NCBI GenBank assembly: GCA_963708025.1
Contig: CAVPSB010000018.1
Location: 256,001 to 320,000 of the forward strand
Reading direction: 5' to 3'
Length of the DNA stretch: 64,000 nt
DNA from: an uncultured Candidatus Rokubacteria bacterium
Lineage (GTDB): Bacteria; Methylomirabilota; Methylomirabilia; Rokubacteriales; DASRDR01
This document shows, in pieces, positions 14,702 through 18,889 of the stretch (the stretch's first letter is position 1; every line of letters begins with the position of its first letter). The position numbers were made by a program, and so were the translations under genes. Below the pieces are notes generated by a model, which did no database searches, was not told the origin of the DNA, and saw nothing but the letters and a program-made list of their open reading frames with translations.

Positions 14702-15364
14702 ATGCACGTCCGGGCGCTCCTGTTCGACGCATACGGCACCCTCTTCGACGTCCACTCGGTGGTCGCCGCGGGCCGCGCGATCACCGCGGATCCCCGGGCC
14801 CTGTCCGAGCTGTGGCGGGCCAAGCAGCTCGAGTACACCTGGCTCCGCACGCTCATGGGCCGCTACGAGGACTTCTGGGCGGTCACCGAGGCGGCGCTGA
14901 CCTTCGCCTGCCGCCGCCTGGGTCTCGCGGCCGGGCCTGCCGAGCGCGCCCGGCTCATGGAGGCGTACCTCGCCCTCGACCCGTTTCCCGAGGTCCGGGT
15001 CGTGCTCGAGCGGCTCCGGGACCTGCCGTGCGGCATCCTCTCGAACGGCGCGCCGCGGATGCTGGAGGCGGCGGTGTCGCACGCCGGTCTCGGCCCTCAC
15101 CTGCGGGCGGTGATCAGCGTCGATGCCGTCCGGCTCTTCAAGCCGACTCCCCAGGTCTACGCGCTCGGCCCGGACCGGCTCGGCGTGCCGAAGGAGGCGA
15201 TTGGCTTCGTCTCCTCGAACTGCTGGGACGTGGTGGGGGCCAAGGCCTACGGCTTCCAGGTCGTGTGGGTCAACCGAGGACGGGCCCCGCTCGAGGAGCT
15301 GGGCGTCCACCCCGACCTGGAGGTGGACGACCTCGAGGGCCTGGCGCGCGCCCTCGGCCGCTGA
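14702..15364 (+). CDS. Haloacid dehalogenase type II
   Basis: FDAYGTLFDV, WRAKQLEYTW, LSNG, FKP, VSSNCWDVVGA; GGAGG RBS. Confidence 0.92.
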   Translation: MHVRALLFDAYGTLFDVHSVVAAGRAITADPRALSELWRAKQLEYTWLRTLMGRYEDFWAVTEAALTFACRRLGLAAGPAERARLMEAYLALDPFPEVRVVLERLRDLPCGILSNGAPRMLEAAVSHAGLGPHLRAVISVDAVRLFKPTPQVYALGPDRLGVPKEAIGFVSSNCWDVVGAKAYGFQVVWVNRGRAPLEELGVHPDLEVDDLEGLARALGR

Positions 15365-15378
15365 CGAACCGTGCTACG

Positions 15379-15527
15379 GTGAGGGCCCTGAAGGAATCCA
15401 GTCCTTCCGGCCCCCCTCCCCCCGGTGCCCGCCGGAGGGACGGGACGTCGCGAGGGCTGTAGGCCCGAGCCGTCCTGGCGATCCGGTCAATTGGGAGGGG
15501 GGTTGGGGGGTGGGCGGGAGGTCCCGA
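15379..15527 (+). repeat. Intergenic repeat family 2 (C-rich and G-rich arms)
   Basis: CCCCCCTCCCCCC...GGGAGGGGGGTTGGGGGGTGGGCGGGAGGTCCC, shared with 16199, 31187 and 51545. Confidence 0.85.
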
Positions 15528-16184
15528 ACGGAGCTGACGATCAAGACCGCCGACGAGCTGGTGGACCCCGCGCTCGAGGCCCGGCTGGTGGCGCGGCGGG
15601 CCAGGCGTCAGGATCCTGCCCTGCAAGCGATCCTGCGCCTGTTCCTCGATCGCGGCGGCCCGGTTGGCGCCGATGCGATCGCGGCGGCGGTACCCGGTCG
15701 CCCTCGCGACGCCGTGCTCGCCACGCTGGCCGAGCTGGACGCCGAGGACCTGATCCTGCTGGGCGACGGTGGGGTCGAGCTGGCCTACCCGCTCGCCACC
15801 GGTCCCAACCCCTTCGCGGTGGCCTTCGCCGACGGGCGGCTGCGCTACGCCTGCTGCGCGATCGACGCCCTCGGCATCCCCGCGATGGTCCGGCAGCCGG
15901 TGGCGATCCGCTCCCGGTGCCACCACTGCGAGGCGCCGCTCCACTTCCCGGTCGACCCGACCGGCCCCGGTCGCGCCGCCGACGGCGTCATGGTCTGGGT
16001 CGGCGCGTGGGGAGCGCGCACGCAGAAGGTGTGCACCTCCCTCTGAACGGTCCTGAACTTCTTCCGGTCGGAAGAGCACCTGCGAGCCTGGCGGCGCGAG
16101 AATCCGGACGTGCCCGGAGCCGCCGCGACGGTCGCCGAGGCGTTCCGGCTGGGCCAACGTATCTTCGGCGACCTCCTCACCTGA
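15510..16184 (+). CDS. merB: MerB-like organomercurial lyase, probable selenoprotein (TGA 16044-16046 = Sec)
   Basis: [10 protein letters not shown] matches MerB Cys96/Asp99. The frame continues past TGA as [15 protein letters not shown]...IFGDLLT. Start is uncertain (GTG 15510 or ACG 15528). Confidence 0.8.
16047..16080 (+). promoter_or_regulatory. Putative bacterial SECIS element
   Basis: Stem TCTTCC/GGAAGA with apical loop GGTC starting 19 nt after the TGA. Confidence 0.7.
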
Positions 16185-16198
16185 GCGTGTGCTAACCA

Positions 16199-16293
16199 AG
16201 AATCCGGTCGTCCGGCCCCCCTCCCCCCGCCAGAGGCCGAAGGCCGTCGCGATGGTGGGGGAGGGGGGTTGGGGGGTGGGCGGGAGGTCCCGA
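16199..16293 (+). repeat. Intergenic repeat family 2 (short), with hairpin module
   Basis: Same arms as 15379-15527; inverted module at 16230-16252. Confidence 0.85.
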
Positions 16294-16297
16294 TAAA

Positions 16298-16920
16298 TCA
16301 GGACCTGGCGGCGCGCCGGACGGCGGCGTCGCGCAGCCCGCCGAGCGCCGAGATGGTGCCCCGCCGCTCGAAGTAACCGGCCATCGGCTGCCAGCCGGTG
16401 GGGATCGAGCCCATGGCGTAGACGACGAGAGTGCCGCCGTCCTCGGGGACGAGCTGCCAGAAGCCCCAGTTGTCCTCCCAGAGGTCGTTCTCCCGTGTCG
16501 TGTCGAGCCGCCAGGCGAGGATGTGGTCGAACCGGCTGGAGACGATAGCGCATGTGGTAGCGGAAGCTGAAGGGCCCGAACTTGCCCTCGTTCCGGATGA
16601 CCCACGCCTCCGCGCTCTCCTCCAGCACCTCCACGGTCCGGAGCCCGGGGAAGATCTTGGGGTAGCGCGTCGGCTCGGTCAGGATCGCCCACACGGGCTC
16701 GGGGCCCGTCGGCACCCGGATGAACGACACCGCGCCCCGCGCGCCGGATACCGGGACGCCGTCGCGCGGTGGCGGGCCGTCGCGATAGACCACCTCGCCC
16801 CGGGTGAGTCGCTGCCGCTCGTCGGCCGAGAGCGCGGGTGGCGGGGCGCCGGTCGCCGGTCCGAGCAGGAGCTGCGACGGCCAGCGCCGCGATCACGACG
16901 GCGCTCGCATGGGCTCGCAA
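16298..16920 (-). CDS. SRPBCC/START family exported protein (frameshifted)
   Basis: Signal peptide, VWAILTEPTRYPKIFPG, WRLDTTRENDL...GTLVVY, spread over three frames. Confidence 0.65.
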
Positions 16921-17027: not shown

Positions 17028-18626
17028 TCAGGCCTCACCGGGGCGCAAGGGTCGGAGCTCGCCCTCCACCGGCGCCAGCCCCCGGGTGCCCGCCGGACGG
17101 CGGGCGCGCCCGAGCGCGGTCACGAAGATCGCGTCCTTGCCCTGCGCATCGGGCGAGAAGAAGCGGACGACGTCGGCGTCGTAGAAGGTCAGTCCCGACG
17201 CGCCGAGGCCGAGGGCGTACGCGGCCAGGTACATCCGGCCCCCGAGAAGTCCGGCCACGAGGTTCACCGCGCGGTAGCCGCGGTCGCCGTAGCGGGCGAG
17301 CGCGGTGTCGAGGTCCGCGAGGAAGAAGACGACCGCGCTCGCGTCGGCCCCGATGGACTGCTCGAGGCAGAGATAGCCGCCCTCGCTCCGGAACTCGCCG
17401 GCCCGGAGCTGCCGCAGGCCCCGGCCGGCGGCGTCGTAGACGTAGGCTCCGGACGGCAGCCCGTCCACGGCGTGGACGAGGAGGTAGCACTCGACGAGGC
17501 GGCCGTCGGGGTCGGTGACGTCGAGCGGCAGCGGGCGGACGGCGGCGTCGAGGATCGTCGAGAGCTGGGAGAAGGCCACGGGCTCGCGGGCGAACTGCCG
17601 GGTCGACCCCCGCCGCAGGATGACCTGCCCCAGCGGGACCGCCGGTGGATCCGGGAGCGGCGCCAGGGGGTGTGAGACGGGCTCGCCGGGCGCATCCGGC
17701 GCCTTCCGCTCGGCCCCGGCCGCGACCCAGGCCGCCGCGGCGGCGGCGCTCGGCAAGGAGGAGGCGGCGTAGGCCTGCGACACCAGCGGGTAGTCCATCT
17801 CGCGGGAGGACAGCGGGACGGTCGTCAGGGCCAGCGGCTCGAGTGGCGGCGCCGGGGGGGGCGGCGGCGCGTCCCGGCCGAGCGTGACGAGGGCGAGCGC
17901 GGCCTCGTGATCCGCGTCGAGGCCGAGCAGTCGGTTCACGGGGGCGTCGGCGAAGCCGAGCTGGATCCGGGCGGGAACGTCCGCGGCTTCCGCAGTCGCG
18001 AGCAGGTTGGCGAGCAGCGTCCCCGAGTCCCAGAAGAAGTGGCGAAAGGCGCGGGCCTGGTACTTCCACGTGTTCCGCCAGTAGATGGCGGAGAGCACCA
18101 GGGTCGCCGGCGCGCCGGCGATCGCCTCCGGCGCGCCGGCGGCGCCGGCGAGCGCGGCGCGCCAGTCACCGGCCCGGAGCCGGCGCAGCGTGAAGTCCCC
18201 GGGACAGAAATGGTACACGCCCGGATCGAGGCCGGCCACGGCGCCGGCGACGACGTACATCTCCACCTCGTAGAGCGCGCCGGTGGAGGCCGCGGCCCGG
18301 AAGTGAATCGTCTCGCCGCCCGGATAGACCTTCTTCTTCGTCAGCCCCGCCGAGAAGAACAGGATCTGGGCCAGGGCTTCGAGGGAGAGCGGCCCTCCGC
18401 CGCCGGCCGCCACCCGCCCGAGCGCCTCCAGCGCCGCCAGCGCGGGCCCCGGCAGCTCGCGGGGGAGCGCCGTCGCCGGGGCGTCCGGGTAGAGCTTGAA
18501 CGGGAAGGGCTTGATCGCCCAGTCGAGGAAGTGGCCCCCGCTCCGGACGCTCTCGGGCGAGTGCCGGGTCGCCGCGTGGTACGCGCGGGCGCCGATCGTC
18601 CCCGCGCTCGCCGGGTCCCGGCGCAT
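17028..18626 (-). CDS. SagB/ThcOx-like double nitroreductase-domain dehydrogenase
   Basis: RAAASTGALY, WKYQARAFRH, RRGSTRQF, GLTFYD; TGATG coupling with the upstream ORF. Confidence 0.85.
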   Translation of the reverse strand: MRRDPASAGTIGARAYHAATRHSPESVRSGGHFLDWAIKPFPFKLYPDAPATALPRELPGPALAALEALGRVAAGGGGPLSLEALAQILFFSAGLTKKKVYPGGETIHFRAAASTGALYEVEMYVVAGAVAGLDPGVYHFCPGDFTLRRLRAGDWRAALAGAAGAPEAIAGAPATLVLSAIYWRNTWKYQARAFRHFFWDSGTLLANLLATAEAADVPARIQLGFADAPVNRLLGLDADHEAALALVTLGRDAPPPPPAPPLEPLALTTVPLSSREMDYPLVSQAYAASSLPSAAAAAAWVAAGAERKAPDAPGEPVSHPLAPLPDPPAVPLGQVILRRGSTRQFAREPVAFSQLSTILDAAVRPLPLDVTDPDGRLVECYLLVHAVDGLPSGAYVYDAAGRGLRQLRAGEFRSEGGYLCLEQSIGADASAVVFFLADLDTALARYGDRGYRAVNLVAGLLGGRMYLAAYALGLGASGLTFYDADVVRFFSPDAQGKDAIFVTALGRARRPAGTRGLAPVEGELRPLRPGEA

Positions 18627-18889
18627 CAGCGCCGGGGTCGCCGCTGGCGCTCGGGGGGCGGTGGCGGCTGGCGCCGGGCCGCGGCCGCCGCCGCCTGCGA
18701 CGTCTGGCGGAACGCGGTCGCGTCGTTGTCGGTCTTGCCGCCGACCTGGCTTCCGCACTGCTGGCAGACGTAGTCGTACTTGTTCCCCGTCGGCAGGACG
18801 AGGAGGAGCTTCTTGCGGACCTCGACCGCCCGGCGGCAGCGCGGGCAGAAGAGGCTGCTGGCTTCGAACTCACGATACGCGTCGCGCAT
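18626..18889 (-). CDS. Small Zn-finger cytoplasmic protein
   Basis: LFCPRC...LLLVLP...YVCQQCG; AAAGG RBS. Confidence 0.75.
   Translation of the reverse strand: MRDAYREFEASSLFCPRCRRAVEVRKKLLLVLPTGNKYDYVCQQCGSQVGGKTDNDATAFRQTSQAAAAAARRQPPPPPERQRRPRR

Follow-up and report, generated by a model that had tools for sequence, protein, structure and literature searches.

A MerB-like gene of a Rokubacteria genome with a probable selenocysteine codon at the position of the second catalytic cysteine

The open reading frame (ORF) at 15510-16184 on the plus strand of the window (the whole 64,000-nucleotide stretch that was analysed, from an uncultured Candidatus Rokubacteria bacterium) is, with a probability of roughly 85%, an intact selenoprotein gene. 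Its product would have the fold of the organomercurial lyase MerB with selenocysteine (Sec) at a catalytic position, would by analogy with MerB carry out protonolysis and would belong to a distinct clade. The TGA in the middle of the gene very probably encodes Sec, and the proposal of the earlier note that Sec takes the place of the second catalytic Cys is supported by the pairing of Sec with Cys in the same alignment column, by the coding character of the sequence downstream, by a SECIS-type hairpin and by a full set of Sec machinery genes. The features of the gene and its immediate surroundings are as follows.

15406-15527, plus strand: upstream copy of a dispersed C-rich/G-rich repeat, the 3′ end of which provides a GGGAGG Shine-Dalgarno-like run and the GTG start
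15510-16184, plus strand: MerB-like gene, predicted to encode a selenoprotein; 224 codons, Sec at codon 179, terminal stop TGA at 16182-16184
15855-15866, plus strand: codons for C116-A-I-D119, aligned to MerB Cys96 and Asp99
15918-15929, plus strand: codons for the clade-specific C137-H-H-C140 motif; C137 is in the MerB Cys117 column and the second Cys is without a MerB counterpart
16044-16046, plus strand: UGA, probably read as Sec (residue 179), aligned with MerB Cys159
16059-16076, plus strand: SECIS-type hairpin with a 7-bp stem, a GGUC loop (16066-16069) and a 12-nt spacer after the UGA
16211-16293, plus strand: downstream copy of the dispersed repeat

Under translation table 11 the ORF ends at 16044-16046, the only in-frame TGA within it, and the frame then stays open for a further 45 codons to the next TGA at 16182-16184. 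Both the early stop and the continuing frame had been read correctly from the letters in the earlier note, as had the local peptide around the codon, CTSL-U-TVLNFF. The GTG at 15510 is the sole ATG, GTG or TTG start 5′ of the conserved N-terminus and sits within the dispersed repeat. The repeat has a C-rich arm of 19 nt, with two exact copies here, and a G-rich arm of 35 nt; with up to 3 mismatches allowed, 66 occurrences of the 35-mer were counted in the genome, compared with 0 of a reversed control. In a metagenome contig from a close relative the upstream copy is absent, position 15382 being joined to 15530 through 15 other letters, and for this reason the repeat looks like a mobile, MITE-like or REP-like insertion.

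The Pfam MerB profile (PF03243) matches residues 96-220 with 97.6 bits against a cut-off of 27, from profile position 2 to 126 of 126, and the gene is the only one in the genome with this domain. The whole profile is covered only with the TGA read through, so that the domain is complete only if the codon is decoded. In a HMMER alignment to solved MerB chains C116 (in the motif CCAID) corresponds to Cys96, D119 to Asp99 and the TGA, which directly precedes the conserved FF, to Cys159, in agreement with the assignment made in the earlier note. Among the 120 homologues listed, C116 and D119 are invariant (120/120), and the C-H-H-C motif is strongly conserved, with C137 in 119, H138 in 115, H139 in 105 and C140 in 108; Ser occupies the C140 column in 11 of the 120. 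An AlphaFold2 model built from a 27-sequence alignment, with Sec entered as Cys, has a mean pLDDT of 90.0 and a pTM of 0.88, and is weakest just before Sec (mean pLDDT 54 at residues 171-180, below 50 at 175-177). All 11 Foldseek matches in the PDB with E ≤ 0.001 are MerB or MerB2 (E 1.9e-11 to 1.1e-7; TM 0.53-0.77). On the basis of this model, the read-through product can be predicted with confidence to have the MerB fold.

The check suggested in the earlier note, an alignment with homologues at the TGA column, gave Cys or TGA as the expected pair. A search of database proteins found 608 homologues (E ≤ 1e-5), and in the best 120 of these 93 sequences end one residue before the Sec column, while 24 have Cys and 2 have Ser at the column and 1 is a fragment. 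At the DNA level, 104 unique homologous segments (126 nt around the Sec column, from 144 parsed of 159 fetched loci) have TGA in 99 cases, TGC in 4 and TGT in 1. The remaining 15 of the 159 loci (L032, L033, L038, L063, L098, L099, L101-L105, L124, L125, L134 and L162) were missed by the motif parser or were too short, and stand outside these codon counts; L032, L033 and L038 each showed one TGA in the read-through genome search.

The same pattern was obtained with stop-tolerant searches of genomes. Among 61 related genomes, the window's own and the unpublished G055 included, 39 match, and 41 of the 44 match rows have exactly one in-frame TGA. Across 251 genomes of the phylum, with the unpublished G055, G132 and G094 counted, 104 match at E ≤ 1e-15 and 96 of the 118 rows listed have one TGA. 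Of the 22 rows that carry no stop, 4 end short of residue 179; 3 of the others belong to the window's order, and 15, at 31-40% identity, to two further families in the same class. When 1.84 billion cluster representatives were searched with a profile, 2702 matched (E ≤ 0.001), the best 150 of which include 24 that end at the column, 95 that span it (93 with Cys, 2 with Gly) and 31 fragments.

Downstream of the TGA, all 99 unique Sec forms have W at +15; G at +24 is found in 95 of them and A at +25 likewise in 95, with four different codons in use at either position. This pattern indicates that the 45 codons 3′ of the TGA are conserved as protein. If the TGA were a true stop, the gene would yield a truncated protein of 178 residues or be a pseudogene, with the 45 downstream codons as a decaying remnant, and gene callers and the NCBI annotation do end the protein there (e.g. 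P0089, 172 amino acids, organomercurial lyase). This is most improbable, given a downstream frame that is open and protein-conserved in 99 unique sequences with synonymous variation, homologues with Cys at the stop column, and a shortened product that would lose the second metal ligand along with the final strands and helices of the fold.

Still less credit can be given to a sequencing or assembly error in this genome, as the same TGA is found in 99 unique homologous segments and is covered by contigs of two other metagenome runs. Record 6 of run X1, which may be the source sample, spans 15849-16079 with zero differences, and record 13 of run X2 spans 15775-16079 with 13 differences, none of those listed being in the TGA codon. 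In three metagenome DNA runs, contig depth summed over the bin with the UGA and hairpin (16040-16076) was 62.6, 337 and 53, several-fold to approximately 40-fold above that of the neighbouring coding bins (0.44 to 74.8, in most cases about 8-28), which suggests that many community members share this stretch at 90% identity or more. The habitat of runs with a small share was kept out of the evidence. A claim of transcription was dropped, the only metatranscriptome contig being one of 159 nt (X19, 15621-15779) that lies 5′ of the TGA.

A hairpin with a G-initial loop 19 nt 3′ of the TGA, as described in the earlier note, is present and was found to have a stem of 7 bp, formed by the arms UUCUUCC (16059-16065) and GGAAGAG (16070-16076), the first G of the GGUC loop being 19 nt after the A of the TGA. 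Its geometry resembles that of the SECIS element of Escherichia coli K-12 fdhF, where the hairpin also lies directly 3′ of the UGA (codon 140) and has a GGUC apical loop, with a spacer of 11 nt compared with 12 nt in the MerB-like gene; the SECIS geometry attributed to the hairpin is thus supported. The stem is a perfect 7-bp helix here, whereas the minimum free energy fold of fdhF leaves one stem U unpaired, and, in contrast to fdhF, the hairpin is made wholly of codons for a conserved peptide, F-F-R-S-E-E. The genome's own selD likewise has an in-frame TGA and, after a spacer of 12 nt, a stem-loop with a GG tip.

In all 99 unique Sec forms the hairpin has an uninterrupted stem of 5 bp or more (7 bp in 87, 6 in 10 and 5 in 2), and the loop is GGTC in 96 of the 99. 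The codons that make up the hairpin are nearly fixed in these sequences: TTC 98/98, TTC 99/99, CGG 98/98, TCG 97/97 and GAA 91/99. In the flanking columns just 66 of 300 Glu codons are GAA, and three to six codons are in use at other conserved columns of Arg, Ser, Gly and Ala. The near-invariance of synonymous sites in the Sec forms points to RNA-level constraint on the hairpin; the stem shows no covariation because it is invariant. Stability was rejected as a line of evidence, since the 76-nt fold has a z-score of +1.32 and 189 of 200 shuffled sequences fold at least as well. A scan of 15300-16400 against Rfam gave no SECIS match, the only hit being a chance match to a miRNA family (E 0.47) within the repeat.

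The Cys forms provide a comparison, for which just 5 unique DNAs were recovered despite the use of a Cys-form query in the metagenome scan. The hairpin is kept in 3 of the 5 and broken in 2, and L046, a Cys form in which it is lost, is sister to L107, a Sec form in which it is kept. The contrast between Sec and Cys forms (0/99 versus 2/5 broken) is suggestive only, the Cys sequences being few and related. The peptide FFRSEE is found in Cys forms too and, together with the hairpin in 3 of 5 Cys-form DNAs, this means that part of the nucleotide conservation may be inherited.

The genome (8.17 Mb in 49 contigs, with an estimated completeness of 99.67% and contamination of 8.18%) was checked for the Sec machinery genes selA, selB, selC (tRNA-Sec) and selD, a check that the earlier note had proposed. 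All were found above curated cut-offs, on contigs other than that of the window (contig 18), so that binning is a caveat:

contig 32: tRNA-Sec, 76.2 bits
contig 32: selB, 371.9 bits
contig 32: selA, 597.8 bits
contig 7: selD, 398.4 bits, with a TGA of its own

The selD gene (contig 7: 91381-92304, locus L019) is itself a selenoprotein gene, with the motif G-A-G-U-A-C-K and the same spacing as in the MerB-like gene. In other genomes, selA was found in 3 of the 3 related Sec-form genomes tested. Of 2 Cys-form genomes, one has selA, and the one in which it was not found is 98% complete.

The frame would also stay open if a variant code or near-cognate suppression let the TGA be read as a standard amino acid (Trp, Cys or Gly), with no Sec involved. 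Such a reading is highly unlikely in view of the specific pairing of the column with Cys, the conserved hairpin of SECIS geometry and the presence of the Sec machinery, and the gene's own terminator is a TGA, which argues against a variant code because TGA must then serve as a stop in this organism. Under the preferred reading, decoding would follow the standard mechanism: SelB with Sec-tRNA(Sec) would bind the GGUC-loop hairpin that starts 12 nt after the UGA at 16044, and Sec would be inserted at residue 179 to give a protein of 224 residues.

The predicted protein is not placed within either of the described families. It misses the NCBIfam cut-offs for MerB (76 versus 193 bits for NF009710 and 62.6 versus 200 for NF033555) and that for SaoL (NF040728, 47.8 versus 140 bits), the latter model aligning only to residues 46-146 in the N-terminal half. 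Like MerB (EC 4.99.1.2; plasmid R831b; PDB 3F0O, 3F0P, 3F2F, 1S6L) and MerB2 (PDB 5C17) it is predicted to have the common fold, and it has the equivalents of Cys96 and Asp99 and the FF motif after the second ligand. The Cys and Asp of the canonical active-site triad are thus present and invariant, but the third residue would be Sec in place of Cys159, there is no equivalent of Cys160, and sequence identity is 20-28%. The clade also has the extra C-H-H-C motif, of which canonical MerB holds the first Cys only. In addition, the gene differs from MerB in context. That it lies outside any mer operon, as stated in the earlier note, was confirmed, with no mer family among the annotated ORFs from 8.7 to 23.6 kb of the window and no MerA above the cut-off in the whole genome (best match 385.8 versus 454.45 bits).

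The MerB-like selenoproteins of anaerobes to which the earlier note alluded are SaoL, the 'selenocysteine-assisted organometallic lyase', and the window gene itself is not one of them. As described in the available text of the preprint by Haft & Gwadz (bioRxiv 10.1101/2022.07.06.499078), SaoL is a MerB-like protein with a C-U motif, the U being at the position of MerB Cys159, and is encoded in a nine-gene SAO locus found only in anaerobes of the Firmicutes, spirochaetes and deltaproteobacteria. The two proteins share a MerB-family domain, Sec (predicted here) at the Cys159 column and Cys and Asp at positions 96 and 99, as far as that text describes SaoL. They differ around the Sec residue, where SaoL has C-U and the window gene has S-L-U-T. 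Leu precedes U in 79 of the 99 Sec forms, and L, T, R and Y together account for 96 of the 99; Cys is outside these four. The genome has no SaoP above the cut-off (best match 178 versus 295 bits) and no transporter genes adjoin the MerB-like gene, and the hosts differ as well, the window's clade being known from soil, sediment and groundwater records of Rokubacteria/Methylomirabilota, whereas the hosts of SaoL are, according to the same text, exclusively anaerobic. In the available text of a 2026 review (PMC13188914) SaoL is the sole MerB-type selenoprotein listed. Within the texts available, a literature search for MerB-type selenoproteins and for Sec in Rokubacteria/Methylomirabilota found only SaoL-type reports. 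The words MerB, mercury and lyase are absent from the deep-Sep paper, and MerB is not mentioned in the main texts of PMC2398784 and PMC5029168.

In a quick maximum-likelihood tree of 140 rows, 134 form a clade (SH-aLRT 99) apart from six Cys-type relatives that are more distant. Sec forms are found in all three subclades, and at least 8 changes between Sec and Cys are implied, 5 of which are forced by well-supported branches; the Cys rows had been deliberately enriched in the sampling. Together with the profile scores, the tree indicates that the window gene is in a clade distinct from both canonical MerB and SaoL. Record titles were compared for 49 related genome loci: 34 name Rokubacteria, Rokuibacteriota or Methylomirabilota, 6 read 'uncultured bacterium' and 9 give other taxa, among which there may be cases of mis-binning. 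From these titles the clade would be mainly one of the Rokubacteria/Methylomirabilota.

The earlier note took the haloacid dehalogenase gene next door as a hint that the substrate may not be mercury. The neighbour is real, the upstream gene encoding a type II haloacid dehalogenase (TIGR01428, 220.3 bits), but its adjacency is not conserved and therefore provides no evidence on the substrate. In the other 44 loci compared, the MerB-like gene has none of the window's flanking genes next to it. A conserved neighbourhood for the window gene was thus ruled out, the sole cluster that includes a window ORF being one of antisense ORFs inside the gene. A 276-residue metagenome protein in the database (P0003), 90% identical to the window product, has at its start the N-terminus of the haloacid dehalogenase encoded next door and stops at the Sec column; it could be a fused gene call or reflect a deletion in a related strain.

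The 3′ neighbours are a frameshifted SRPBCC gene and a SagB-type dehydrogenase gene. The former (16305-16793, minus strand; SRPBCC/polyketide-cyclase-like) appears frameshifted in that its N-terminal half corresponds to positions 5-63 of 126 of the Pfam profile and a plausible C-terminal half, ending in a stop, is found in another frame; the split could represent a pseudogene or an assembly indel. The latter (17028-18758, minus strand) encodes a protein of 576 residues with two SagB-type dehydrogenase domains (TIGR03605, 170.9 bits) and is overlapped by an ORF of 87 residues (18626-18889, minus strand) with a weak zinc-ribbon match. The two may be peptide-maturation genes.

By contrast with the window gene, the MerB-like gene of one subclade (approximately 10-13 of the loci L086-L100; e.g. 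L090, 3801-8712) belongs to a conserved cluster of genes on one strand. These encode, in order, an ECF sigma factor, a zf-HC2 anti-sigma factor with a bactofilin-like region, the MerB-like protein, a 3-mercaptopyruvate sulfurtransferase (NF008557, 275.9 bits) and an E1 dehydrogenase.

If the analogy with MerB holds, the metal of an organometal compound would be bound jointly by the thiolate of the Cys and the selenolate of the Sec, and the Asp would then protonate the leaving carbon. The MerB-like selenoprotein is thus inferred to carry out carbon-metal protonolysis with a selenolate replacing the thiolate of Cys159, the selenolate being expected to act as a softer and more fully deprotonated ligand than a thiolate.

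It is also conceivable, though rather unlikely, that the protein is a genuine MerB-fold selenoprotein but not a lyase, and that it functions in stoichiometric binding, trafficking or sensing of soft metals or metalloids through the Cys/Sec pair and the C-H-H-C motif. The extra conserved C-H-H-C motif of the clade is in keeping with such a role, as is the subclade in which the gene is found with an ECF sigma factor, a zf-HC2 anti-sigma factor and a 3-mercaptopyruvate sulfurtransferase, which looks like a stress-response setting. Moreover, the genome has no MerA above the cut-off to take off Hg(II), which makes turnover after formation of a metal-selenium bond hard to picture. On the other hand, all 120 homologues listed have the Asp by which MerB protonates the leaving group, and this would be unexpected for a pure binder. 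In MerB structures this Asp is also a metal ligand.

If the protein is a lyase, as preferred here, a wider scenario can be put forward tentatively and at rather low odds. Sec would be ancestral in the whole clade and the enzyme would cleave carbon-metal bonds independently of MerA, acting on methylmercury or on a non-mercury organometal or organometalloid compound, with the C-H-H-C motif taking the metal from the Cys/Sec pair. If this is true, it would represent an unrecognised selenium-dependent turnover of organometals that is distinct from SaoL and takes place in largely non-anaerobic habitats.

The homologues collected here indicate that the gene belongs to a large family of soil and groundwater bacteria. 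The databases end this family at the Sec codon, as in 93 of the 120 nearest proteins listed, and the products are consequently recorded without the second metal ligand. The NCBI name 'organomercurial lyase' on the 172-residue P0089 suggests that the pipeline treats the family as non-selenoprotein. The phylum has already been reported as rich in selenoproteins in the available text of the 2026 review (PMC13188914), and recognition of the clade adds a widespread selenoprotein family to it. The clade is also of evolutionary value, since it offers one active site in a natural series of versions with Sec or with Cys. For the cycling of mercury and other organometals in soils and aquifers, the role of a MerB-type site with selenium in organisms without MerA becomes a testable question.
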